64,000 bases of DNA, taken from a virus (lineage: Duplodnaviria > Caudoviricetes). A model generated the notes under the pieces. The model did no database searches. It worked only from the letters and a program-made list of their open reading frames with translations, and was not told the DNA's origin. The first letter of the stretch is position 1. The number at the start of each line of letters is the position of its first letter. Shown piece by piece: positions 28,491 through 39,984 of this stretch. The stretch is taken from the IMG/VR virus record IMGVR_UViG_3300021963_000022, one strand, 5' to 3'. A program made the position numbers and the translations under genes.

Positions 28491-28505
28491 ATTAAAACTT
28501 ATAAG

Positions 28506-28739
28506 TTATTTGTTTGGACGTAGATTTTCTCTAACTCTTTTTAAGTATTCACGACCAACTAATCCTGCTTCAATTTCTTGTAATGCAGTTACAGTTGGAC
28601 CTGCTTTAGTGTTAAGTGTAGAACGATGTCCACGTTTCAATTCTCTTACCCTTTGTGAGGCAATGAGAACTAAATCGAATCGATTGCCGATCATACTGGC
28701 GGCTTCTTCACTTGAATATCTTGCTCTAGATTCTGACAT
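28506..28739 (-). CDS. rpoZ: RNA polymerase omega subunit
   Basis: IGNRFDLVLIASQRVREL..ALQEIEAG signature. Confidence 0.9.
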   Translation of the reverse strand: MSESRARYSSEEAASMIGNRFDLVLIASQRVRELKRGHRSTLNTKAGPTVTALQEIEAGLVGREYLKRVRENLRPNK

Positions 28740-28741
28740 AT

Positions 28742-29278
28742 TTACCTTTTAATTCCATAAAAATACAAATCACAATGAGGTGAACCCACTTCAAATGTGT
28801 GCGAACTAAACATCTTATCAATGTCTAGGTTATCCCTGAAATCTTTTTCAGTTAGATTCTTGTAGTAGTCCCAACCTTTGTCTATAGTCAATGGACTATC
28901 GCTAGGTGATGTACGTGTAGTACCATGCTCGGGTCTACCTGTTGTAGCACATGTCATAAATATCAATCCACCTGGCTTTGTCATACGATGCATGTTTACA
29001 AATGTTTCTACCCAATAAGGATTGTGTTCAAAACATTCACAGCTACCCACTGTATCATATGTATTATCAGGATGATCTAAGGTTTGACCTTCACATACTA
29101 AATCAACATCTCTACCCTGTCCAACGTCAATACCTAAGTATTGGCAATGACTAAAAAACATTCGTATTGAGCCATTGATATTGAGACTACCTACTTCAAG
29201 TACATTGACATTAAAAAAATGTGTAGGGTACAGAAGTTTTAGTTTTTGTATATAGTTAAATTGTTGTTGATGTGCCAT
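28742..29278 (-). CDS. class I SAM-dependent methyltransferase
   Basis: VLEVGS motif I, LGID, CECFEH. Confidence 0.85.
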   Translation of the reverse strand: MAHQQQFNYIQKLKLLYPTHFFNVNVLEVGSLNINGSIRMFFSHCQYLGIDVGQGRDVDLVCEGQTLDHPDNTYDTVGSCECFEHNPYWVETFVNMHRMTKPGGLIFMTCATTGRPEHGTTRTSPSDSPLTIDKGWDYYKNLTEKDFRDNLDIDKMFSSHTFEVGSPHCDLYFYGIKR

Positions 29279-29288
29279 TAAAATTCCT

Positions 29289-29364
29289 TGGAGCGGGCGA
29301 AGAGGCTCGAACTCTCGACATTTACCTTGGCAAGGTAATGCTCTACCAACTGAGCTACGCCCGC
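29289..29364 (-). tRNA. tRNA-Gly(GCC)
   Basis: Cloverleaf, loop TT-GCC-AA, encoded CCA. Confidence 0.95.
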
Positions 29365-29365
29365 A

Positions 29366-29515
29366 TTAACTTGGAATAACATGTGGTATATATGGTACAT
29401 TACGTGGTCCATGTCGTTGTTCAAAAAGCTTTTTAGCTTCTTGTACGGTCGGTGCATACACACGATCTTTAGTATCACCTTGTGGTGTTCTAACTGTTGT
29501 TTCATACATTGGCAT
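29366..29515 (-). CDS. small hypothetical protein (49 aa)
   Basis: MPMYETTVRTPQGDTKDRVYAPTVQEAKKLFEQRHGPRNVPYIPHVIPS with AGGA RBS. Confidence 0.65.
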   Translation of the reverse strand: MPMYETTVRTPQGDTKDRVYAPTVQEAKKLFEQRHGPRNVPYIPHVIPS

Positions 29516-29529
29516 ATATTATTCCTATT

Positions 29530-29604
29530 TGGTACATCGACACGGTTTCGAACCGCGGACCCTCTCCGTGTAAAGGAGACGCTCTACCCCTGAGCTATCG
29601 ATGC
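29530..29604 (-). tRNA. tRNA-Val(TAC)
   Basis: Cloverleaf, loop TT-TAC-AC, CCA. Confidence 0.95.
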
Positions 29605-29614
29605 CTTATTCTAT

Positions 29615-29794
29615 TTAACCACCCTGTGTGCTATCTTTAACTTTTGTTTCACTAACAATACGTTCAAATTCATCATCTTCGTTTTTGTGATCCTCAACAA
29701 TTCTTGGATCAGGCTTACGAAAGATTAAGTCAAAGTTACTATCAAATGTCTTTAATGGGACACTAAATGGTCTTGGACTAGAACCCTTACTCAT
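29615..29794 (-). CDS. small hypothetical protein (59 aa)
   Basis: MSKGSSPRPFSVPLKTFDSNFDLIF.. Confidence 0.6.
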   Translation of the reverse strand: MSKGSSPRPFSVPLKTFDSNFDLIFRKPDPRIVEDHKNEDDEFERIVSETKVKDSTQGG

Positions 29795-29955
29795 TTGTTA
29801 TTAGTCTTTCCAGAACCACGTGAATTACTTTGTTCAATCACAGCAAAACTGCGAATGAATGCACCACGTTCATGTGCGTCACGAATTTTTGCCGCGGCAC
29901 GTTTAACTGTCTTTGAAACTTTCACTGCTTTCGCATCATATCCTCTGCATGTCAT
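29791..29955 (-). CDS. small basic hypothetical protein (54 aa)
   Basis: AAGGA RBS; MTCRGYDAKAVKVSKTVKRAAA.. Confidence 0.6.
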   Translation of the reverse strand: MTCRGYDAKAVKVSKTVKRAAAKIRDAHERGAFIRSFAVIEQSNSRGSGKTNNK

Positions 29956-29977
29956 AATATTTCCTTTTTAATTAAAT

Positions 29978-30055
29978 TGGTCGGAATGGTGGGATTCGAA
30001 CTCACGACCCTCTGCTCCCAAAGCAGATGCGCTAACCAGACTGCGCTACACTCCG
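29978..30055 (-). tRNA. tRNA-Pro(TGG)
   Basis: Cloverleaf, loop TT-TGG-GA, CCA. Confidence 0.95.
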
Positions 30056-30062
30056 AATATTC

Positions 30063-30383
30063 TTACCAGTAGTACCAGTGTGGCTTACGGCTCACACTAG
30101 GGTAATCAATGATATCCAAATCATTGATATCTACATTCAATACAATTTTCTCCCACTGACGACCTTTTGCTCGTTGTGGTTGATTCATCATTTCACGAAC
30201 CCACCACATGGGAGTGCTCATCCAGTGATACTCTGTATCAACTTTTTTTTTCTTTTTTGTTAAAACCCCGGGGTATTGTAAATAGTCAATATACTTACGA
30301 TTACCAATGAGGTAATATTTGTAATCCCAATCTTCTTCAGGGAATCTGAGTTTACTGGGACGATCTTTGTACGTTCTAGACAT
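30063..30383 (-). CDS. hypothetical protein
   Basis: AGGAG RBS, 106 aa. Confidence 0.75.
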   Translation of the reverse strand: MSRTYKDRPSKLRFPEEDWDYKYYLIGNRKYIDYLQYPGVLTKKKKKVDTEYHWMSTPMWWVREMMNQPQRAKGRQWEKIVLNVDINDLDIIDYPSVSRKPHWYYW

Positions 30384-30432
30384 AAAGTTCTCCTTATCTA
30401 AAATCGCATATTGACCTCGCTTTCTTAATGGT

Positions 30433-30507
30433 TGGTTGCGGGGGACGGATTCGCACCGCCGATCTTCAGCTTATGAGACTGATGAGTTACTACTTCTCCA
30501 CCCCACG
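30433..30507 (-). tRNA. tRNA-fMet-like (CAT)
   Basis: C1:A72 mismatch, loop CT-CAT-AA, CCA. Confidence 0.85.
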
Positions 30508-30530
30508 GTATATATTGTTATGATGTGAAT

Positions 30531-30722
30531 TTATGCTACAATAGGACGAAACTCAACCTTGAGTCCGTCTTCAACGTTGAAGTCTGATAGCAAACCGTTT
30601 GCTTTGGCAATATTTATTTCTTGCCAATAGTCTTTGGGTTGATAGCTATCACCCGTAACAGTTATTGTTTTATAAATTTTATCATTTATTAAAATTTTTA
30701 CTCGCATAATACTATTTATCAT
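30531..30722 (-). CDS. small hypothetical protein
   Basis: 63 aa ORF between tRNAs; ATAAATA upstream of internal Met. Confidence 0.55.
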   Translation of the reverse strand: MINSIMRVKILINDKIYKTITVTGDSYQPKDYWQEINIAKANGLLSDFNVEDGLKVEFRPIVA

Positions 30723-30725
30723 ATC

Positions 30726-30801
30726 TGGTGGAGGATACAGGGATCGAACCTGCGACCTATTGCTTGCAAAGCAACCGCTCTCCCAACTGAGCTAATCCCC
30801 C
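30726..30801 (-). tRNA. tRNA-Ala(TGC)
   Basis: Cloverleaf, loop TT-TGC-AA, CCA. Confidence 0.95.
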
Positions 30802-30806
30802 TAATT

Positions 30807-30891
30807 TGGTACGAGTGGCCGGAATCGAACCGGCACACCTTTCGGCGAGAGATTTTAAGTCTCTTGTGTCTACCTATTTCACCACACTCGC
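30807..30891 (-). tRNA. tRNA-Leu(TAA)
   Basis: Long variable arm, loop CT-TAA-AA, CCA. Confidence 0.95.
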
Positions 30892-31062
30892 ATTATCTCA
30901 CAAATGCCTGAAAGTAATATGTAGTTGGGTTTAATGCATACCAACTACGAACCACACTGACACCACCTTGCGGTTGCCAGCCTTCAGACAATAATTCTGC
31001 TACTAGTTTATGAAATTCATCATAACTAGCATTTATAACCTTATACTCTGTTATCATAACTT

Positions 31063-31147
31063 TGGTGCTCCAGGTCGGACTCGAACCGACACGCCTTTCG
31101 GCACTGGCTTCTAAGACCAGCGTGGCTACCAATTACACCACCAGAGC
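31063..31147 (-). tRNA. tRNA-Leu(TAG)
   Basis: Long variable arm, loop CT-TAG-AA, CCA. Confidence 0.95.
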
Positions 31148-31279
31148 AATTAAACTTTTTAAAGAACATACATAGTATATAACAATAATCATATACTGTC
31201 AAACATTTTGGGTTAGAAGAACTCAGACGTATAATAATCATTTACCGGTTAGTTATCACAGAGGTCCAAGCCTTGTTAT

Positions 31280-31355
31280 TGGAGCGGGAGGCGAGAGTCG
31301 AACTCGTCTATTTCTGCTTGGAAGGCAGACGTGTAACCAAAAACACTTCACCCGC
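31280..31355 (-). tRNA. tRNA-Gly(TCC)
   Basis: Loop CT-TCC-AA, CCA; 5' end overlaps the stop of the GIY-YIG gene. Confidence 0.9.
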
Positions 31356-31890
31356 GTTGATCCTTTTCTTGCCATTTTTTCTTAATAGCATCTGATATCT
31401 TTCTTTTATGTTCTTCTGACTTTGGTGGTCTTGATTTATATTTTGTACCTAATTTAGATTCTGAAATATTCATACGAACTTCATCGGTCATTTTAGGTGC
31501 TGTACCATTCTTACGTCTTGCAATCAAGACTTCTGACAACCTATCTCTGGTTTCTTGACTATGGTGTTTACCTAACATCTTAGGCATACCCGACTTGTTT
31601 ATATAATCGAAGCCACCAAAACCACCTCTACGAATATTGTAAACATCTTCCCTTAATAGGAATTCATCATTTACAAGTTCTTTTTCCCTAGCAAACATTT
31701 CTTCTGCTGTATCAAAATATTCTAAAATATCTTTTTTAAAATTTTCAATTCCATATTTGTCTTTTGCATAATTTAAGATTTTACCGGATCCCATGTAACC
31801 ATCATTTAAATTCTTAGTTTTATGAGTGCCTATATAAATTTTGTTGTCTAACAAATTAGTAATTTGGTATATGTAATAATAGTATTTCAT
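31348..31890 (-). mobile_element. free-standing GIY-YIG homing endonuclease with NUMOD3-like motif
   Basis: YIYQITNLLDNKIYIG; NUMOD3-like GKHHSQETRDRLS; ATAAATA upstream. Confidence 0.9.
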
Positions 31891-31913
31891 ACATTTATTT
31901 ATCAATAATGTGT

Positions 31914-31944
31914 AATCTGCTGTTTTACCACTATACGAACCCCG
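31914..31944 (-). pseudogene. 5' fragment of a tRNA-Gly-like gene
   Basis: GCGGGTTCGTATAGTGGTAAAACAGCAG; acceptor 5' strand plus D-arm-like sequence only. Confidence 0.55.
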
Positions 31945-32125
31945 CTCATAAATACTTTATGCATACATATGACGCTATCACAGCTACGGGATTATTGATA
32001 CACTTATCAATGACCGACGATGCTGTGTGTTACATCCTTGTACACAATTTACAATCCAATACAACTGTAATAAAATTTTTTACCAATATTGAACCGGCAT
32101 TAGATTTTATTCATTCATTGTAATT

Positions 32126-32202
32126 TGGTGCGCCCACCTGGATTTGAACCAGGGACCAACGGCTTATGAGGCCGCTGCTACTAACCACTGAGCTATAAGC
32201 GC
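32126..32202 (-). tRNA. tRNA with CAT anticodon, Ile2-like body
   Basis: Loop CT-CAT-AA; D- and T-arm sequence resembles E. coli tRNA-Ile2; isotype not certain. Confidence 0.85.
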
Positions 32203-32245
32203 ATGTTCTTATTATATATCAATTAAGATATGTTGTCAATTTATT

Positions 32246-32338
32246 TGGTACCCCCGCCGAGAGTCGAACTCGGATGAACCAATTATCTGTTGCTTACGGG
32301 ATATAAATCCGCCGTTTTAACCATTAAACTACAGGGGC
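32246..32338 (-). tRNA. tRNA-Ile(TAT)-like with long variable region (93 nt)
   Basis: Acceptor GCCCCTG/CGGGGGT, loop TT-TAT-AT, ~22-nt variable region, canonical T arm, CCA. Confidence 0.75.
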
Positions 32339-32343
32339 AATTA

Positions 32344-32826
32344 TTACTTCATAGATTGTACAAATTCAGTAGAACCTATCGTATACCATGCACCATCTAC
32401 TTGCCATCTTACGTTTGGTATCTTTCCTTGCAGGTATTGCATTATAATATAAGACAATAGTTTTGAATCCATCTTTTGACCCATTTCTATAAGATTGAGA
32501 AAATAGTGTCCATGCTGTTCACTAACATTCATCAATACTTTAGATTGACTAGGTTTCATCCATTCAGGAAATATTTCTGGATGCATTAACCATGCACATT
32601 TATAAGATACGCAAGGATTTTCAGGTCTATCATTGTATATTGTACAGCCATTACTACCTTTGTAATGGCAAGGCATTCCGTTAAAAAAATGGTGACCGTA
32701 TGCTTCACCGCTTAACCAACCTTCACAACATGCGGTACAACCATCACATTTTCTATCTATAACAGGTTTAGTTTTCTCTAAAGTGTTAGCATCAACTATG
32801 GGAATTGTTTTCTTTTTTTTAGACAT
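32344..32826 (-). CDS. YkgJ-like Cys-cluster (Zn/Fe-S) protein
   Basis: CDGCTACC and CTIYNDRPENPC..C motifs. Confidence 0.75.
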   Translation of the reverse strand: MSKKKKTIPIVDANTLEKTKPVIDRKCDGCTACCEGWLSGEAYGHHFFNGMPCHYKGSNGCTIYNDRPENPCVSYKCAWLMHPEIFPEWMKPSQSKVLMNVSEQHGHYFLNLIEMGQKMDSKLLSYIIMQYLQGKIPNVRWQVDGAWYTIGSTEFVQSMK

Positions 32827-32862
32827 GCATTATTTATATAGTGCAAGCATGCCTGATAATTT

Positions 32863-32936
32863 TGGCATCCCCCCAAGGACTCGAACCTTGACTAACGGTT
32901 TTGGAGACCGGTATGCTGCCATTACATTAGGGAGAT
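32863..32936 (-). tRNA. tRNA-Trp(CCA)
   Basis: Loop CT-CCA-AA, G73, CCA. Confidence 0.9.
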
Positions 32937-32940
32937 AAGT

Positions 32941-33129
32941 TTATGATTTTGTATCTATGTTTTGACCTTTACTATGAGTAGGTTCTATTTCACCTACTAT
33001 ATTGTACAGATATTGTACAACTTCAATAATTTGTTTATTAGTTACAGGATCATTTATATCTTTATATACAGTAAGTCTCTGTTGGTTATTAACCATGTCC
33101 CAAGCTGTAGATATACTTTGTACTATCAT
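32941..33129 (-). CDS. small hypothetical protein
   Basis: 62 aa ORF between tRNAs. Confidence 0.5.
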   Translation of the reverse strand: MIVQSISTAWDMVNNQQRLTVYKDINDPVTNKQIIEVVQYLYNIVGEIEPTHSKGQNIDTKS

Positions 33130-33147
33130 ACAACTATTTATATAATT

Positions 33148-33225
33148 TGGAGCATCGGGTCAGATTTGAACTGACGATTTTACGGATTTGCAATCCGTTG
33201 CATTTGACCACTCTGCCACCGATGC
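33148..33225 (-). tRNA. tRNA-Cys(GCA)
   Basis: Loop TT-GCA-AA, U73, CCA. Confidence 0.93.
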
Positions 33226-33230
33226 ATATT

Positions 33231-33428
33231 GCTCTGCATCCCCCGGCGGTAATTATAGAGTATCAAGATATGACGCTATCATACCCATCACACACTCCTT
33301 CCACCCGCTTCCCGACAGGGACCGTTCTCGCACTGCCAGCGGCCTTTCGGTTTAAAGACTACCACCCGTAGTTGTCACACTACTTCTCATCGTGTGGGTC
33401 ACACTATCCGGAGACACCCGGAACGTTC
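33231..33428 (-). ncRNA. candidate structured RNA between tRNA-Ser(GCT) and tRNA-Cys
   Basis: GC-rich; at least six helices visible, including a long-range one. Confidence 0.65.
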
Positions 33429-33516
33429 TGGTGGAGAGTGTGGGATTCGAACCCACGCACCCATTTCTGGATGACAGATTAGCAATCTGCTGGTTTAACC
33501 ACTCACCCAACTCTCC
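33429..33516 (-). tRNA. tRNA-Ser(GCT)
   Basis: Long variable arm, loop TT-GCT-AA, CCA. Confidence 0.95.
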
Positions 33517-33523
33517 TAATACT

Positions 33524-33600
33524 TGGCGCACCGTAGGGGACTCGAACCCCTGACCCCCGCCGTGACAGGGCGGTGCGCTAACCAACTGCGCTAACGGTGC
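33524..33600 (-). tRNA. tRNA-Asp(GTC)
   Basis: Loop CT-GTC-AC, G73, CCA. Confidence 0.95.
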
Positions 33601-33673
33601 ATAAGTAGAATAGGACACCCCTTTGGCCTAGGTCGATTAAGAGTACGCCTGCCCAGCGACTCTCCTATATTCT

Positions 33674-33758
33674 TGGTGGAGATTACTGGGATCGAACCAG
33701 TCGTGCCATAAGGCGGCGGATTTACAGTCCACTGCATCACCATTGATGCTTCATCTCC
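33674..33758 (-). tRNA. tRNA-Tyr(GTA)
   Basis: Long variable arm, loop CT-GTA-AA, CCA. Confidence 0.95.
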
Positions 33759-33889
33759 AAGATGAGTTACGGTTGCAAGACCTAGTGTCTCATTACTGAG
33801 AGAAGTGTCAGGGCGATGTAACTCAAAAATTAGTATAACATAGATGTGTATAATATTAGGGTTGTTGTATACATCTATGTTATGTATTA

Positions 33890-34078
33890 GTATAAGCTAC
33901 TGGTTTCCATGCCAGCCCTTAATTGAGCGGTTACTCTGTCCATCTCTTTTATTCTAACGTCTGTGTGCAGAGAGATACTGCCTATCAGATTCAGAGTAAT
34001 TAACTCGCTAACGGTCTTCTGCCACCGGATCTCTATCATTAATCAAACGCTATTTTAACGAAAATAGTAACGGGATTC
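33890..34078 (-). ncRNA. candidate structured RNA downstream of tRNA-Glu
   Basis: Multiple helices (TTACTCTG/CAGAGTAA, CTATTTT/AAAATAG, ATCTCT/AGAGAT); no ORF in track. Confidence 0.55.
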
Positions 34079-34080
34079 TT

Positions 34081-34155
34081 TGGAAGAGCATAGGAGAATC
34101 GAACTCCTCTTCTTAGGATGAAAACCTAATGTCCTAACCGATAGACGAATGCTCC
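34081..34155 (-). tRNA. tRNA-Glu(TTC)
   Basis: Loop TT-TTC-AT, CCA. Confidence 0.93.
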
Positions 34156-34157
34156 AT

Positions 34158-34283
34158 GTTATTAGTTTTGCTGACGCACTATTTGCTATGCTCAACGGAA
34201 TTGCCAGCTGGACGTACCGTTTATATACATAGTTACTTAGAGTTGACGTTTACTCAATGGCTTACATCAGCAAAACTAATAAC
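34158..34283 (-). ncRNA. candidate RNA closed by a perfect 17-bp stem
   Basis: GTTATTAGTTTTGCTGA (34158-34174) / TCAGCAAAACTAATAAC (34267-34283). Confidence 0.55.
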
Positions 34284-34294
34284 ACACTATATGA

Positions 34295-34535
34295 AAACAC
34301 ACTATGGGAACTATTAAACAAATAATCAGTACCGTCTACTGATGCAATGTCATTCGTCATTACTGCCTAACTGCCCGTCACGTTAAACAATATTGCTATT
34401 GTCGGTACGCTTCTTGTACTCTATGCGAAGCCAGTCCGTCAACTGGTTATGCTTCCATAGAGTACCTAACGGATCAGGTAACCCTTAATATGTTTACATA
34501 TAGTCCCTGTAACTTAAACAGGGCTATATGAAAAA
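34295..34535 (-). ncRNA. candidate multi-hairpin RNA at the start of a promoter-driven unit
   Basis: 10-bp GTACTCTATG/CATAGAGTAC helix, ACAATA-GCAA-TATTGT GNRA hairpin, 5' 13-bp hairpin. Confidence 0.55.
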
Positions 34536-34738
34536 TTAAATTTTAAAGAACTTTGTTGATTAGTGCGATGACTTTTTCAACTCATGCTATGATTGTATCA
34601 TAACTACCATTTATTGTCAAATTCTTTTTTGTGTCTCTGTTTCCAAGAACTTGTTCAATCAATCTATACATAGAGTATAGCAGATTGAGGATTTATTGTC
34701 AAATTTACGATTTTAGTACTTAATACTACATAAAATAC

Positions 34739-35356
34739 TTGATGATAAATATTCTTATGGAACAACCTACCTTATATGATGAACTAAAATTACCCAAAAA
34801 TTGTACGTCTGAAGAAATCAAACAAAAATACAAAATTTTAGCACAATTACATCATCCTGATAAAGGAGGAGATGTGGAAAAGTTCAAACAAATTAAATTC
34901 GCATATGAAGTGTTGAGTGATCCAATTAAACGTAAACACTATGATTCAACCGGCGATCATTACAATAATATTAACATCGACAGTGAAGTTATGGGCAGAT
35001 TATCTGTTATGGTTTCACATTTTATTCAACATATTAATCCAGAGTTTGATGATTTAATATTAAAAATGAAAATTGAGATCCGTGCATTACATCAACTGAC
35101 AACAGATGCTATTGTAGAATGTAATGAATTAATCGCCAAATATAATATTATTTCTAACAAGATTAGATTAAAAAAAGAAGGCGAGAACTTACTAAAGTTG
35201 GTTGTTGATAAACAAGTATTAGGACTTCATAATGAAGTAATTAACCACAAAAGAGGTTTAATAGTTTTTTCTAGAATGTTAGAAGTATTAGACGATTACC
35301 ACTACAGTAGTGATGAATGGCGATTACTACTAGAAAATGTTGATGGTCCGGCGTAG
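34739..35356 (+). CDS. DnaJ-domain protein
   Basis: J-domain with HPD (LHHPDKGGD..FKQIKFAYEVLSDP); antisense to the tRNA array; ATAAATA upstream. Confidence 0.88.
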   Translation: MMINILMEQPTLYDELKLPKNCTSEEIKQKYKILAQLHHPDKGGDVEKFKQIKFAYEVLSDPIKRKHYDSTGDHYNNINIDSEVMGRLSVMVSHFIQHINPEFDDLILKMKIEIRALHQLTTDAIVECNELIAKYNIISNKIRLKKEGENLLKLVVDKQVLGLHNEVINHKRGLIVFSRMLEVLDDYHYSSDEWRLLLENVDGPA

Positions 35357-35418
35357 AGGAATCGAACCTCTATTGATAGCTTAGAAGGCTACTGTATGAT
35401 CCATTATACTAACGCCAG
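35344..35418 (-). tRNA. tRNA-Arg(TCT)
   Basis: Loop CT-TCT-AA, CCA; 3' end overlaps the DnaJ stop on the opposite strand. Confidence 0.92.
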
Positions 35419-35428
35419 AGTATTTGAT

Positions 35429-35504
35429 TGGCTCCCCTACGTGGGCTCGAACCACGGACATTTTGATTAACAGTCAAACGCTCTACCGACTGAGCTATAG
35501 GAGA
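35429..35504 (-). tRNA. tRNA-Asn(GTT)
   Basis: Loop CT-GTT-AA, G73, CCA. Confidence 0.95.
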
Positions 35505-35511
35505 ATAATTT

Positions 35512-35586
35512 TGGTGCCGACTATCGGATTCGAACTGATGACCTATCGCTTACAAGGCGATTGCACTACCACTGTGCTAAGTCGGC
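35512..35586 (-). tRNA. tRNA-Thr(TGT)
   Basis: Loop CT-TGT-AA, CCA. Confidence 0.95.
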
Positions 35587-35633
35587 ATATTTTATTTAAG
35601 CGTATTGTATCATAGGAAAACTTTTATGTCAAC

Positions 35634-36221
35634 CTAATTCTGCCAAATCCTAGAATGTTTGGGTACTCCTGCTAACAAATATTCCATTTGGTCAGCAAGT
35701 ATTGTTCTATGTTGTAATATCATATTTTCATAATGTGAAGGTACGTACGGAGAATAAAGCAATTCCATACGTACTTCTTTTAAACTTTTATGACCTTTTT
35801 TGCTGTTACAATCTTTACAAGCAGTAACAACATTCATCCAAGTGTTTTCACCACCTTTGCTTTTTGGAACAATATGGTCTCTACTTAACATATGATAGTT
35901 AGGAAAGTGTTCACCGCAGTATGCACATACATGACGGTCACGACCGAACAATGTTTTATTGCTTAATGCTACACATGCATGTTTGTATGGATTAAATCCG
36001 TGACCTTTGATAGCGATGATACTAGATGCTTCTAAGTAGCTTAATGTACCGTCGTTTTGTATACCACCGCGATATTTAGCCACAATATTACCCATTGACC
36101 ATGCTATGGCATCTTTTGCTTTATAGGTAATTGCGTCATCATTTGATATCCATTGCCGGGGAACTCCCGAGATATCTAGTGCTAGAACAGCCATGTAGTA
36201 CTCCTTTTCTGTTATTATCAC
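35634..36221 (-). CDS. HNH endonuclease
   Basis: RDRHVCAYCG, DHIVPKSKGG, NVVTACKDCNSKK; true start probably 36194 (MAVLALD). Confidence 0.9.
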   Translation of the reverse strand: MIITEKEYYMAVLALDISGVPRQWISNDDAITYKAKDAIAWSMGNIVAKYRGGIQNDGTLSYLEASSIIAIKGHGFNPYKHACVALSNKTLFGRDRHVCAYCGEHFPNYHMLSRDHIVPKSKGGENTWMNVVTACKDCNSKKGHKSLKEVRMELLYSPYVPSHYENMILQHRTILADQMEYLLAGVPKHSRIWQN

Positions 36222-36241
36222 TAATTGTATTTAATGCCATA

Positions 36242-36316
36242 TGGCGGGTCCTGCAGGAATTGAACCTACATCCCGAAGTTCGAAGCATCGTATTCTATCC
36301 ATTGAACTAAGGACCC
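36242..36316 (-). tRNA. tRNA-Arg(TCG)
   Basis: Loop CT-TCG-AA, one mismatch in anticodon stem, CCA. Confidence 0.88.
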
Positions 36317-36321
36317 TATAA

Positions 36322-36473
36322 AGGTGGGAGCCTAACTATCTTATTGTTAATAAGCCTCGTTAGATTGTCTCGTATAGGCAAGTTTACACACCCGTCAATC
36401 ATACTATAGTGTCATCACAGTTAACCCCACTGTGACTAGATTGACAGGGACTCAAACCTATCGTCTATCCCAT
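36322..36473 (-). ncRNA. candidate multibranch RNA between tRNA-Gln and tRNA-Arg(TCG)
   Basis: Closing TGGGA/TCCCA; 10-bp helix with a U-G wobble that pairs only on the minus strand; further hairpins. Confidence 0.6.
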
Positions 36474-36476
36474 AAC

Positions 36477-36550
36477 TGGCAGAGGGTACAAGAATCGAAC
36501 TTGTGATCTCGGAATCAAAATCCGATGTTATGCCATTTAACTAACCCCCA
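36477..36550 (-). tRNA. tRNA-Gln(TTG)
   Basis: Loop TT-TTG-AT, G73, CCA. Confidence 0.93.
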
Positions 36551-36557
36551 ATAAATC

Positions 36558-36634
36558 TGGTAGCCTCACTGTGACTCGAACACAGGACCCCCGCCTTATC
36601 AAGACGGTGCTCTAACCAACTGAGCTATGAGGCT
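36558..36634 (-). tRNA. tRNA-Ile(GAT)
   Basis: Loop TT-GAT-AA, CCA. Confidence 0.95.
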
Positions 36635-36638
36635 ATAA

Positions 36639-36713
36639 TGGTGGATGTAAGTAGATTTGAACTACTGACCTATTCCGTATGAAGGAATTGCACTACCGCT
36701 GTGCTATACATCC
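36639..36713 (-). tRNA. tRNA with CAT anticodon (probable elongator Met)
   Basis: Loop TT-CAT-AC, fully paired cloverleaf, CCA. Confidence 0.85.
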
Positions 36714-36792
36714 TGGTACCCCTGATCGGGTTTGAACCGACAACTGGCGCTCTCTCTTGAAGAACCGACTTTTCCTATTTGTCTACAGGGGC
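36714..36792 (-). tRNA. atypical tRNA, Leu-like D-arm, ambiguous anticodon (CAA or AAG register)
   Basis: Acceptor GCCCCTG/CAGGGGT, T arm and CCA intact; anticodon arm GGTTCTTCAAGAGAGAGC is non-canonical. Confidence 0.6.
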
Positions 36793-36798
36793 ATTACT

Positions 36799-36875
36799 TG
36801 GGGTGCTTGATGGGATTCGAACCCACGTATATCGGAATCACAATCCGAGGTCTTAACCGCTTGACGACAAGCACC
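36799..36875 (-). tRNA. tRNA-His(GTG)
   Basis: G-1:C73, loop TT-GTG-AT, CCA. Confidence 0.95.
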
Positions 36876-36876
36876 A

Positions 36877-36888
36877 TGGTGGAAACGG
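36877..36888 (-). pseudogene. orphan tRNA 3' end (CCGTTTCCACCA)
   Basis: Acceptor strand CGTTTCC is exactly complementary to GGAAACG at 37497-37503. Confidence 0.7.
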
Positions 36889-36978
36889 TGGAGGAAGATA
36901 ACAGAATCGAACTGTCACCTATTCATCATAAGTGGGACGGTTTTCAAGACCGTGTCCGCGCCATGCAGCCTATCTTCC
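36889..36978 (-). tRNA. tRNA-Ser(TGA)
   Basis: Loop CT-TGA-AA, long variable arm, atypical D-arm, CCA; 5' end overlaps the HNH stop. Confidence 0.88.
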
Positions 36979-37422
36979 ATTGTTTCTATTTTTAGACTTA
37001 TATGTAGGGAGTTGCGAATCGCAATTACTACACACAAATCTTAAATTTTCTAAACGATTGTCATTATTAATCCCGTTAATATGGTCAAGTATTAACGGCA
37101 TTGGTTTATCTTGCCATTCAGGTCCTATATTACAGCAAGCACATTTGTACTCTATTAAGTTTTTTGATTTTATTCTTGCTTTAATACTATGCCGTGCATA
37201 TGTAGAATTTTCACAAAACACCTCTGCATCGGGATATAATATATCCCATTTAGCATGACGCCCTAATTTTTTACCTGTATTCCAAGCAATATGTCCTTTT
37301 TGTGCTCCTGCTTTAGCTGAATGCTTGTGTTTAATTTTATTTGGATTACTATGACATGACATTTCATGTGCTTTTAGCGATCCTTTGTTATTTATTTCTC
37401 TGTTACAATGTGGGCAGTTCAT
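36970..37422 (-). mobile_element. free-standing HNH homing endonuclease
   Basis: CPHC zinc knuckle; LILDHINGINNDNRLENLRFVCSNCDSQ HNH motif; ATAAATA and AGGA upstream. Confidence 0.9.
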
Positions 37423-37473
37423 AATAGTTTCCTTACTCTTATTTATGCTTTATAGCAATAATTTGACATTTTG

Positions 37474-37503
37474 ATGCTATAAACCTGACTCTGCCACGTT
37501 TCC
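37474..37503 (-). pseudogene. 5' fragment of a tRNA-Ser-like gene
   Basis: GGAAACGTGGCAGAGTCAGGTTTATAGCA: acceptor strand plus Ser-type D-arm, then sequence breaks off. Confidence 0.7.
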
Positions 37504-37509
37504 ATAATA

Positions 37510-37586
37510 TGGTAGAAGCAGTGGGATTCGAACCCACGACTCTCGGATTAAAAGTCCGATACTCTAGCCAACTGAGTTATGCTTCC
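37510..37586 (-). tRNA. tRNA-Lys(TTT)
   Basis: Loop CT-TTT-AA, CCA. Confidence 0.95.
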
Positions 37587-37592
37587 ATATAT

Positions 37593-37669
37593 TGGTGCGA
37601 CCGGAAGGACTTGAACCTCCGACTCCCTGTTTCGTAGACAGGTACTCTAATCCACTGAGTTACGGTCGC
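37593..37669 (-). tRNA. tRNA-Arg(ACG)
   Basis: Loop CT-ACG-AA, CCA. Confidence 0.95.
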
Positions 37670-37734
37670 ATTCTAAAACATACTTTGGGGATTTCACTTA
37701 ACGCCTCCCTAACTCAAAGTATGTTTTAGAATGC
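37668..37734. repeat. perfect 20-bp inverted repeat abutting the first tRNA of the array
   Basis: GCATTCTAAAACATACTTTG (37668-37687) / CAAAGTATGTTTTAGAATGC (37715-37734). Confidence 0.9.
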
Positions 37735-38088
37735 CGTGTATCTCTACACGACACGATAGGGTTATACCCTACCCAGTAGTCTTACTCTTTGTGTTATCGC
37801 CACAAATTTCATATATACTGTCCGCCCATTCTATACATTTTGCGCTGTATCACGGCTCTCGTTGCCTGTTCACGCTGTCTATCAAGTGATACCAGTCTGC
37901 TCGTTAGCTTTCTTAGTAGCCATATGATAGATCCTAGCACGGTCGATTTTATTCTGTATCAACTGTGCTAAATCTTCCTTTGTCAAAACATGATTGCTAA
38001 ACCAATCTCGTTTGTCTTCAGAAGTTTTGTATTGTATCTCTTTGTCCATTTATTGTCAAATTTCCTTTTGTTGTATTTTTACAACGCT

Positions 38089-38124
38089 AACAAAAAACCC
38101 TGAGAGTCTTTCGATTCCCAGGGT
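38089..38124 (-). terminator. intrinsic terminator upstream of the tRNA array (attenuator terminator)
   Basis: ACCCUGGGAAUC-GAAA-GACUCUCAGGGU followed by UUUUUGUU. Confidence 0.85.
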
Positions 38125-38153
38125 CTTGATAATGTCGTTATGATGTTAACTTG

Positions 38154-38288
38154 TTACCTAGGCCCCGGGCTATACTCTAGTGTATCATTGCCGCGAATAC
38201 TTGTTGGATATACTGGTGCAAAGGATACTGTGGCGATTGACTGCCATTGTCCCATATGCTTCAGCGATTTACAAGTTTTATTCATCAT
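38154..38288 (-). CDS. candidate leader peptide (44 aa) containing all 20 amino acids
   Basis: MMNKTCKSLKHMGQWQSIATVSFAPVYPTSIRGNDTLEYSPGPR; stop codon lies inside a predicted antiterminator arm. Confidence 0.6.
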   Translation of the reverse strand: MMNKTCKSLKHMGQWQSIATVSFAPVYPTSIRGNDTLEYSPGPR

Positions 38289-38343
38289 AGTCTTTTATTT
38301 AGTCCTGGTTGTAAATTAGTGCTAAATTGCACTTTTTCAATTC

Positions 38344-39984
38344 ATGCTGAAGTATAACAGACTATTGATTAAACGTCAACCTTTAGTTTACCCAAATAGT
38401 TATACAGCTACAACAACAGTCACTAAATATTTCATGCTATTCATACCTACTAACTACGAAACCGTCTTCCTTAGCTATGACGAACCAAATTGCGAAAGTA
38501 ATTACAAACGTCTATTAGAACTATGTCCAACTGCTAAAAGAGTACACGGAGTCAAGGGATCTGATACTGCACACAAAAAAGTAGCTGAACTATGTACAGG
38601 TGATCGTGTTAACATCATCGACGGTGATAACTATGTGCGGTCTGACTTCTTTACAAACGAGTATAACATAGATGACTTTAATTGTAAAGTTGTTAGCTTT
38701 AGTACTAGAAATCATATCAACGGACTACAATATGGAAACGGTAGTATCAAATCATGGCCCGTTACTCTACTAAAAGAAATGCGTACCCATGAAAATACAA
38801 ATAGTAATACTACATTAGTAGACTTTGACTTTGGTAACTATCTGCAGGTTAACACTCTAGGTAGCTGTGTTATTAACAACGGTAGCCCATTACAAGCGTG
38901 GCGTGCTGGATTCCGTGAAGGTGTTAAACTATGTATGAGGAATGGATTAGTTGTATCTAGTCTAGAGGAAATCGACTGGCGTAACTTTGATAGACTATGG
39001 AACTGGATGCACATAGGCAGTGATGTAGTCAACGGACTATGGGCTATACACGGGGCACGTTTTGGATGCTGGCAAGCATTACTTAACTTCGACTTGAAAA
39101 ATCTACATGACTTTAACTATATAGATAATATGTTCTATGACCTTACGTTTAGCGATTCAAAATTTAGAGATAGATTAGAAACAGAATGTAACAGAATTGG
39201 TCAACTAATTCGTGTAAAAACAAACGACCGTAGAATAAAAAACGTATACAGCAATGGAGATAGCAAACTGTACAAGGAACAAGTAAAACCTATATTACGC
39301 TGTCCTGACAACAAACCATATGACATTGTATTCATTAGCTATAATGAACTCAATTGTGACAAAAACTACAAACTTTTGTTAACAAGATTCCCTAGAGCTA
39401 AACGCATACATGGAGTCAAGGGAATACACAATGCACACATAGAAGCGGCAAAACTGTGTGATACTGATTACTTTTGGGTAGTTGATGGTGATGCTGAAAT
39501 TGTAGATGACTTTAAGTTTGACTATGTTGTACCTTTCTATGATAACTTATGTACACGTGTTTGGAGAGCAAAGAATCCAGTCAATGACTTGGTATATGGA
39601 TATGGTGGAGTAAAACTATTACCCAGAACAGCAACGGTACGAATGAATACAGACAGACCTGATATGACTACAAGCATATGTAAGAACTATGAACCCATAA
39701 TGGTTGTTAGTAACATAGCACAATTTAATACTGACCCATTCAATACATGGAGATCGGCATTCAGAGAATGTACTAAACTAAGTAGTCAGGTCATACCCGG
39801 ACAAATTGATGACGAAACAAAGAAACGATTAGACATATGGTGTACAACGGGTACTGACAGTTATGCAATCGATGGTGCTATCAAAGGACGTGAGTACGGT
39901 GAACAGCATAGACATAATATGAATATGCTACAAAAGATAAATGACTTTGTGTGGATGAAGGAACAGTATGACAGATTTCACTGA
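38344..39984 (+). CDS. tandem two-domain glycosyltransferase-like protein
   Basis: Two internally homologous halves (VFxSYxExN..NYKxLL..PxAKRxHGVKG, DGD, AWRxxFRE); true start probably 38434. Confidence 0.65.
   Translation: MLKYNRLLIKRQPLVYPNSYTATTTVTKYFMLFIPTNYETVFLSYDEPNCESNYKRLLELCPTAKRVHGVKGSDTAHKKVAELCTGDRVNIIDGDNYVRSDFFTNEYNIDDFNCKVVSFSTRNHINGLQYGNGSIKSWPVTLLKEMRTHENTNSNTTLVDFDFGNYLQVNTLGSCVINNGSPLQAWRAGFREGVKLCMRNGLVVSSLEEIDWRNFDRLWNWMHIGSDVVNGLWAIHGARFGCWQALLNFDLKNLHDFNYIDNMFYDLTFSDSKFRDRLETECNRIGQLIRVKTNDRRIKNVYSNGDSKLYKEQVKPILRCPDNKPYDIVFISYNELNCDKNYKLLLTRFPRAKRIHGVKGIHNAHIEAAKLCDTDYFWVVDGDAEIVDDFKFDYVVPFYDNLCTRVWRAKNPVNDLVYGYGGVKLLPRTATVRMNTDRPDMTTSICKNYEPIMVVSNIAQFNTDPFNTWRSAFRECTKLSSQVIPGQIDDETKKRLDIWCTTGTDSYAIDGAIKGREYGEQHRHNMNMLQKINDFVWMKEQYDRFH

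Follow-up and report, generated by a model that had tools for sequence, protein, structure and literature searches.

What do the spacers between the tRNA genes of a large phage encode when they contain no open reading frame (ORF)? This question is raised by a 64,000-nucleotide (nt) stretch of viral DNA (IMG/VR record IMGVR_UViG_3300021963_000022; Caudoviricetes), hereafter called the window, in which tRNA genes alternate with long spacers over positions 33231-37734. The window derives from a large uncultured phage to which none of the GenBank phages is close, and the proteins recognised in it by PHROG and Pfam searches include a ribonucleotide reductase, a radical SAM protein, homing endonucleases and tail-associated proteins. 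ARAGORN detected 27 tRNAs, all on the minus strand (29289-37669), and Rfam added tRNA-Tyr(gta) on the same strand, giving an array of 28, every member of which (28/28) encodes the 3' CCA. Our reading is that the ORF-free spacers of this array are small structured RNA genes, standing as cassettes in the tRNA operon and belonging to at least six families: S1, S2a, S2c, S3b, S3c and S4.

The evidence for this comes from related IMG/VR contigs, of which three were collected via a J-domain protein encoded in the interval and 23 via a 23-nt word from the promoter and leader; the relatives of S1 were found by a 19-nt word from its core. The six modules are conserved in 12 to at least 120 of these contigs. 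We scored covariation against two controls, 500 shuffles of the 3' partners and partner columns slid by 1-3 positions, and calculated folding z-scores against dinucleotide shuffles. The covariation score was above all 500 shuffles for S1, S2a, S2c, S3b, S3c and S4 (0/500 reached it in each case), and sliding the partners in the first 26 loci left 0-4 compensatory pairs and 30-50% pairing. The ORF-free spacers were matched in as many relatives (up to 23) as the tRNAs, and the same conservation map yielded no match in the relatives for the ORFs at 30063-30383 and 32344-32826 and for a 150-aa HNH ORF. Promoter and leader are almost invariant even where the adjacent J-domain protein is only 70% identical.

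The selected structures belong to the tRNA strand. The consensus (alifold) energy was lower on the minus strand in every case, G-U pairs abound, and the GAGA, GCAA and GUAA loops, of the GNRA type, are correct on the minus strand only. Such one-strand G-U pairs and GNRA loops indicate that these are RNA features and not DNA features. The preference of wobble pairs and tetraloops for the tRNA strand had been pointed out in the initial annotation of this DNA and was borne out here; the conservation and covariation on which that annotation had staked its proposal were found for six modules, beyond both the shuffled and the slid controls. Taken together, the six covarying elements are, with a confidence that we regard as high, real RNA genes selected for RNA structure.

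S1 (33226-33428, minus strand) is about 203 nt long, has a GC content of 53% and lies exactly between the CCA of tRNA-Ser(gct) and tRNA-Cys. It combines an invariant core of about 35 nt (UCGGGAAGCGGGUGGAAGG ... CUAUAAUUACCGCC) with several covarying hairpins. The 19-mer of the core is present in at least 120 IMG/VR contigs (a lower bound), many of them 200-520 kb long, and a search of 185,579 prokaryote species genomes with it returned only 17 chance matches of 19-38 nt, which lack a tRNA context. A covariance model of S1, R1, found one copy per locus; 86 of its matches scored 78-250 bits, and one further match was weak and partial. The weak match (L010:1409-1529, plus strand; 20.5 bits) lies about 500 nt upstream of the true S1 of that locus and may be a degenerate partial copy. 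On the R1 alignment, 94.2% of the cells are paired and both sides have changed in 31 of 58 pairs (364 cells), with a covariation score of 0.303 versus 0.131 +/- 0.004 for the shuffles and 0.04-0.07 for the slid partners, with which pairing fell to 37-55%. RNAalifold on the first 26 loci gave compensatory changes in 18 of 59 pairs on the minus strand. Single-sequence folding of S1 is weak (z = -1.3).

The automatic consensus structure of R1 is partly wrong, namely in helices 2 and 8. A local UCCC/GGGA hairpin shows no compensatory changes. Covariation is seen in a local 5' hairpin and in a long-range GUCCC/GGGAU helix, the latter being replaced by GAAUC/GAUUC or UUCUUU/AAAGAA in relatives. A resemblance of S1 to helix 8 of the signal recognition particle (SRP) RNA was considered and rejected: it requires the local UCCC/GGGA hairpin, which is without compensatory change, the rival long-range helix covaries, and SRP has no Rfam match. 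S1 also carries two copies of CGGGUGG(U/A)A, at positions of about 61-70 and 122-131, and only one complementary UUACCGCCG. Since both copies and their complement are invariant, covariation cannot tell which pair forms, and the arrangement may reflect a pseudoknot or a switch between conformations.

The spacer between tRNA-Glu and tRNA-Tyr holds three modules, and as a whole it folds with z = -2.6 and shows compensatory changes in 17 of 61 pairs in the first 26 loci (RNAalifold, minus strand). S2a (33890-34080, minus strand) is about 190 nt long and begins at the CCA of tRNA-Glu; among its 28 unique sequences, from 41 loci, 10 of 45 pairs are compensatory. S2c (33763-33830, minus strand), of about 68 nt, has an 8-bp closing stem and a GUAA-capped hairpin, and 10 of its 18 pairs are compensatory in 15 unique sequences. 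Between them lies S2b (33833-33885, minus strand), a near-perfect palindromic hairpin of 19 bp (I6; helix 33835-33883) followed by a U-run. S2b is gained or lost whole as an indel among relatives and is present in only five loci; with this form it resembles a terminator and could be an optional one.

The 430-nt leader in front of tRNA-Glu folds at -137.6 kcal/mol versus -97.1 +/- 5.5 for its shuffles (z = -7.3), with only -110.6 kcal/mol on the plus strand. It comprises S3a, S3b and S3c, all on the minus strand. S3a (34505-34585), a 5' leader that immediately follows the transcription start, forms two small hairpins; it is nearly invariant in 23 contigs, and its hairpin stems covary (for example, CCCUG/CAGGG versus AUUGC/GCAAU). 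S3b (34286-34504) is about 215 nt long, has a closing helix of about 20 bp that includes G-U pairs (I2), and carries conserved motifs, GACGG among them, in hairpin loops. Compensatory changes were found in 9 of its 57 pairs over all loci and in 7 of 55 in the first 26. In four relatives (L001, L002, L014 and L017) the S3b closing helix is retained and its cargo is swapped for at least two unrelated inserts. S3c (34157-34285) has a closing helix of 18-22 bp (I3, 34157-34284) and ends 2-5 nt ahead of tRNA-Glu; 16 of its 37 pairs are compensatory, some of them within the closing helix. An 11-nt direct repeat, TTTTCATATAG, brackets a hairpin of S3a and the S3b module (34286-34530, minus strand), and a CTATATG between its copies can pair with either copy in two mutually exclusive ways; the repeat may be the scar of an insertion or may act as a switch in folding.

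S4 (36317-36476, minus strand) extends for about 160 nt from the CCA of tRNA-Gln to about 10 nt before tRNA-Arg(tcg). Its 12 unique sequences share 63-96% identity, 8 of 38 pairs are compensatory and z is -2.1. S5a (37668-37790, minus strand) consists of two short hairpins, one of them GAGA-capped, and a perfect 20-bp helix (37668-37734, I1) with a cargo of 27 nt; its hairpins fold with z = -6.2 to -7.2, and the helix end falls inside the first two bases of tRNA-Arg(acg). Two relatives, L001 and L003, keep an S5a-type helix architecture before tRNA-Arg(acg) and carry a different cargo of 62 nt. The interval thus has four helices of 18-23 bp, at 37668-37734, 34286-34504, 34157-34284 and 33835-33883. 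A box shared by closing helices, GTRTGTTTTM, was dropped as too weak, with 5 matches versus 1.3 expected and 2 of 100 shuffles equalling that number.

How are these modules placed relative to the tRNAs? In the window and its relatives alike, a module end and the nearest tRNA end are 0-10 nt apart, in keeping with the original remark that the structures begin or end within a few nt of a tRNA boundary, and every tallied flanking tRNA is on the same strand as its module. S1 begins directly after a tRNA CCA (median gap of about 2 nt), its motif starting 113-115 nt past the tRNA end in most loci. In about one-third of the loci S1 also abuts the next tRNA directly, and there the tRNA starts 82-90 nt after the motif; over all loci the median distance from the motif to the next tRNA is 119 nt. 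The 5' end of S2a is at most 3 nt from the tRNA 3' end in 89% of loci. At the other side, the 3' end of S2c precedes the next tRNA by 4-9 nt (median 9), that of S3c by a median of 5 nt and that of S4 by a median of 11 nt. The tRNA neighbours themselves change from phage to phage: Tyr, Ser, Asp, Asn, Arg, Glu, Cys or Gly upstream of S1 and Cys, Ala, Asp, Gln, Leu, Tyr, Ile or Thr downstream of it; Glu, Tyr or Ser after S2c; Glu, Lys or Tyr after S3c; and variable tRNAs on both sides of S4. The modules therefore behave as cassettes, which abut tRNAs, keep to the tRNA strand and swap their tRNA neighbours among phages.

How many spacers does this concern? The initial annotation had counted at least eight ORF-free folding spacers. 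The folding spacers are real; their number is five, with about nine closed modules, because a gap-by-gap map, which considered the eight gaps of more than 20 nt inside 33231-37734, shows protein genes in three long spacers. Along the minus strand from 5' to 3', the gap from 37670 onwards, upstream of tRNA-Arg(acg), holds the three hairpins of S5a (37790-37668). After tRNA-Arg(acg) and tRNA-Lys, the gap 36979-37509 contains the 5' half of an old tRNA-Ser (37503-37474) and an HNH ORF (37422-36970), and hence no RNA gene; it is followed by a replacement tRNA-Ser(tga) and by the 3' end of the old tRNA-Ser (36888-36877). Then come the tRNAs for His, Leu, Met, Ile and Gln, S4 as the sole content of the gap 36476-36317, and tRNA-Arg(tcg). 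The gap 35587-36241 is occupied by a second HNH ORF (36221-35634) and a promoter (35632-35604), behind which lie the tRNAs for Thr, Asn and Arg(tct). The gap 34156-35343 comprises the plus-strand J-domain gene (34739-35356), tandem promoters (34702-34592) and the leader S3a/S3b/S3c (34585-34157), and leads into tRNA-Glu. The gap 33759-34080 is that of S2a/S2b/S2c (34080-33763) and ends at tRNA-Tyr, which is separated from tRNA-Asp by a conserved spacer of 73-76 nt (gap 33601-33676; z of about -0.5, no covariation). After tRNA-Asp and tRNA-Ser(gct), S1 fills the last gap (33428-33226) before tRNA-Cys.

The modules share transcription units with the tRNAs. Over 10 kb, the six sequences that come closest to a sigma70-type promoter agree with it at 11-12 of 12 positions, and each of them lies on the minus strand, in a spacer in front of a tRNA or a module. 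Promoters were placed by the consensus scan at 38059-38031, 35632-35604, 34702-34674 and 34620-34592 (minus strand). The last two form a tandem pair (34592-34702; TTGACA-17-TATACT and TTGACA-17-TACAAT with TG, 11/12 each), which is invariant in the relatives and precedes S3, tRNA-Glu and the downstream genes; the promoter at 35632-35604 (11/12 positions) precedes tRNA-Thr. The consensus scan of the array region detected no minus-strand terminator. The promoters and the scan agree with the proposed polycistronic arrangement, although S2b has a terminator-like form. Beside the promoter at 38059-38031, a 55-aa ORF (37882-38049, minus strand) starts between the -35 and the -10 element; the region is 80-84% conserved and may be coding or part of an RNA leader.

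How might the cassettes be expressed? The selection on structure, the shared promoters and the coinciding ends are seen directly, and from them we infer that the cassettes are released, are stable and act in trans on a target. At a probability of roughly 0.6, the RNAs would be co-transcribed with the tRNAs and released by the enzymes that mature tRNAs, the closing helices serving as additional processing or stabilising sites for a double-stranded RNA enzyme. This mechanism is proposed by analogy, from the anatomy of the array and the precedent of phage T4. Host RNA polymerase would start at the sigma70-type promoters and produce long precursors in which tRNAs alternate with RNAs. Host enzymes would then free the cassettes, RNase P at the 5' end of the next tRNA and RNase E or exonucleases at the CCA of the preceding one; release by tRNA processing predicts ends that coincide with tRNA ends, as is seen in many phages. 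The closing helices of 18-23 bp in S3b, S3c and S5a suggest double-strand-specific cleavage of the RNase III type besides RNase P, and could be sites of cleavage or stabilisation as in rRNA precursors. The folded RNAs would persist and act in trans; their invariant cores would most likely bind a conserved factor, of host or phage origin, that belongs to RNA metabolism or translation. They may also be decoys for host nucleases or sensors, as first suggested, roles that the analysis neither supports nor excludes.

The T4 precedent is close in layout. In the T4 cluster, RNA D follows tRNA-Arg after 1 nt and RNA C follows after 6 nt, and the homing endonuclease gene segB lies within the cluster; RNA C (species 1) and RNA D (species 2) accumulate as stable RNAs, whose role is not established. 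Like them, the modules of the window lie on the tRNA strand, abut tRNAs inside the tRNA transcription unit and have a homing endonuclease nearby. T4 has two such RNAs at the cluster end, whereas the window has at least six families of up to 215 nt, placed between tRNAs and exchanged as cassettes in more than 100 phages. A blastn comparison of T4 rnaC and rnaD with the window returned only words of 9-15 nt, in tRNA T-loops. The other precedent named at the outset, GOLLD, is together with ROOL found in phages or prophages, often beside tRNA islands, and GOLLD sometimes encloses a tRNA. These RNAs measure 580-800 nt, in contrast to the 70-215 nt of the modules, which have no Rfam match at E values up to 5. 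Both precedents are fair analogies, the tRNA-adjacent layout being like that of T4.

RNase III processing stems bracket RNA in rRNA operons and in phage early transcripts. The helices of 18-23 bp in the array likewise surround RNA cargo in what would be a polycistronic non-coding precursor. Unlike in the rRNA operons, the cargo here consists of small RNAs, and an RNase III gene is absent from the five near-complete relatives; a role of RNase III in the array is suggested by analogy.

Several observations weigh against release of the cassettes from tRNA precursors, or against its generality. The absence of a phage RNase III gene from those relatives implies that the closing-helix step would depend on the host. 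For about 25% of the S1 copies, one flank is free of tRNAs over 450 nt. S2b, with its terminator-like hairpin and U-run, stands in the middle of a unit. S5a is without covariation support, its relatives being too few for a covariation test. The Tyr-Asp spacer (33601-33676, minus strand), which is 95-97% identical among relatives and always directly before tRNA-Asp, has neither structural nor covariation support (z = -0.46; 0 compensatory pairs).

Are the elements instead servants of the tRNAs beside them? The main rival explanation, unlikely in our estimate yet the one to be taken most seriously, is that they act in cis, either as self-cleaving ribozymes or as leaders and trailers that set cleavage, insulate the tRNAs from misfolding or protect transcript ends. 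The HDV-like theta ribozymes provide a model: minimal double pseudoknots of gut phages, they have their cleavage site 1-5 nt from phage tRNA 3' ends, and only 4.5% of the associated tRNAs encode CCA (PMC10879173). S1, S2a and S4 similarly start at a tRNA 3' end, with the base that follows the CCA, and S2c, S3c and S5a end 0-9 nt before a tRNA. However, the window elements are larger than theta ribozymes, all 28 tRNAs of the array encode CCA as against 4.5%, and the HDV-like, hammerhead, twister, pistol and hatchet families are unmatched in the Rfam search at E values up to 5. In addition, invariant cores of about 35 nt and multi-helix folds of 160-200 nt exceed the needs of an insulator, and one and the same module adjoins many different tRNAs.

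Promiscuity of this kind also bears on a second rival, in which read-through to the downstream tRNAs is governed by the elements as cis-regulatory leaders, be they attenuators, riboswitches or T-box-like tRNA sensors. S3 does lie directly behind the tandem promoters, S3a and S3b offer mutually exclusive pairings (CAUAUAG occurs twice, around CUAUAUG), and the two CGGGUGG copies of S1 could compete for one ACCGCC. Against this, an intrinsic terminator is absent after S1, S3 and S4, no riboswitch or T-box family of Rfam matches, and the modules shift among tRNA contexts, which leaves such regulation improbable.

A third rival holds that the elements are DNA-level or degenerate features, such as remnants of tRNA pseudogenes, scars of homing endonucleases or mobile palindromes without RNA function. 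Individual pieces of the array fit this description: at 37474-37503 lies one half of a tRNA-Ser that an HNH insertion has split, the S2b palindrome is present or absent as a unit, and the direct repeat TTTTCATATAG flanks S3b. For S1, S2a, S2c, S3b, S3c and S4, however, the compensatory changes preserve pairing, the G-U pairs and GNRA loops fit one strand, and near-invariant cores persist where the neighbouring protein is only 70% identical; for these six the explanation is largely refuted, and we give it very little weight. Finally, Y-like RNAs with a phage Ro60 protein have been described in phage tRNA arrays (PMC12135203), and the window elements resemble YrlA, Yrl1 and Yrl2 as structured RNAs in or near phage tRNA clusters, but Y-RNA-like partners of a phage Ro60/Rsr protein are hardly credible here, as none of five near-complete (92-100%) related phage genomes has a TROVE (Ro60) domain, which was matched in control genomes, and YrlA is unmatched in Rfam.

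The spacers have no counterpart among the known families that were searched. At the gathering threshold, Rfam 15 found only tRNAs in the whole window. With E values up to 5 over 28500-38500, the spacer hits were at chance level only (mir-19 at 23.6 bits, MIR7993, and a permuted tmRNA at 18.4 bits over tRNA-Asp), and GOLLD, ROOL, HEARO, YrlA, RNase P, SRP, 6S, T-box and the riboswitch families were unmatched. The tRNA model RF00005 (above 29 bits) scored the known tRNAs and tRNA-Tyr in the window and none of S1-S5. The Rfam check that had been recommended for the spacers thus recovered a tRNA and no known non-tRNA family. The recovered tRNA-Tyr(gta) (33677-33758, minus strand; RF00005, 36 bits) was missed by ARAGORN in the window and called by it at the homologous place in relative L003; its CCA extends out to 33674, with the tail TCTCCA|CCA. 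Searches of GenBank phages by megablast and blastn matched only the tRNAs and the HNH gene. Relative to Rfam and the literature searched, at least six of the RNA families are new.

The remaining features of the interval are protein genes and their traces. Between 36877 and 37503 (minus strand), an HNH homing endonuclease with a replacement tRNA-Ser(tga) has been inserted in an older tRNA-Ser. The HNH ORF (36970-37422, PHROG match) is absent from relatives, the replacement tRNA-Ser(tga) is divergent, and alignment to the intact tRNA-Ser(tga) of L001 and L003 identified the remnants of the older gene, its 5' half at 37474-37503 and its 3' end at 36877-36888. A reading of 37474-37503 as a structured RNA was therefore discarded: it is the tRNA-Ser half of the gene split by the insertion. 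The second HNH endonuclease (35634-36221, minus strand; 195 aa, PHROG and Pfam HNH) is a resident one, its ORF being kept in 18 loci. The J-domain (DnaJ) protein gene (34739-35356, plus strand; Pfam DnaJ, E = 3e-19) is conserved in relatives and stands outside the RNA set. It lies on the opposite strand amid a minus-strand operon, and 13 nt at its 3' end are shared with tRNA-Arg(tct).

Outside the interval, a structured-RNA reading of the conserved spacers 28540-28741, 29365-29529 and 29605-29977 was rejected, as small ORFs were found there instead. The ORFs at 29366-29955 (minus strand) have lengths of 49, 54 and 59 aa and possess ribosome-binding sites. Just downstream of the array, a 77-aa ORF (28506-28739, minus strand) matches the omega/Rpb6 family (PF01192, E = 1.7e-11) and is conserved in about 20 loci of relatives; this suggests that the phage encodes an omega-like RNA polymerase subunit. 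Inside the array, a GIY-YIG/NUMOD3 (SegB/SegE-like) homing endonuclease (31348-31905, minus strand) abuts tRNA-Gly(tcc), and the tRNA-Ile with anticodon tat (32246-32338, minus strand) is 93 nt long, an unusual length for an Ile tRNA, and is matched in one of the first 26 relatives.

Could the RNAs act on the tRNAs themselves? A more adventurous version of trans action, which we consider doubtful, is that S1 is a new large ribozyme or an RNA that binds tRNA 3' ends and acts on the tRNA pool during infection, that the cassettes amount to a functional-RNA toolkit of the phage, and that the closing helices are a general socket for interchangeable cargo. The idea of binding to tRNA 3' ends arises from the UGGN of the CGGGUGG(U/A)A boxes, which complements the NCCA ends of tRNAs.

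The known non-tRNA RNAs of phage tRNA clusters are few (T4 RNA C and D, GOLLD and ROOL, theta ribozymes, and Y RNAs), and most are without an established function. To these the array adds at least six covariation-supported families that lack an Rfam entry, one of which, S1, occurs with an invariant core in at least 120 giant-phage contigs. These families pass between phages as cassettes, as tRNA genes do, and with their sizes, ends, core motifs and alignments they are defined targets for RNA biologists. If the idea of a socket is true, closing helices would accommodate interchangeable RNA cargo in general. The findings suggest that the tRNA operons of giant phages are a general platform for the expression of small RNAs, which bears on the question of why large phages carry tRNA arrays.

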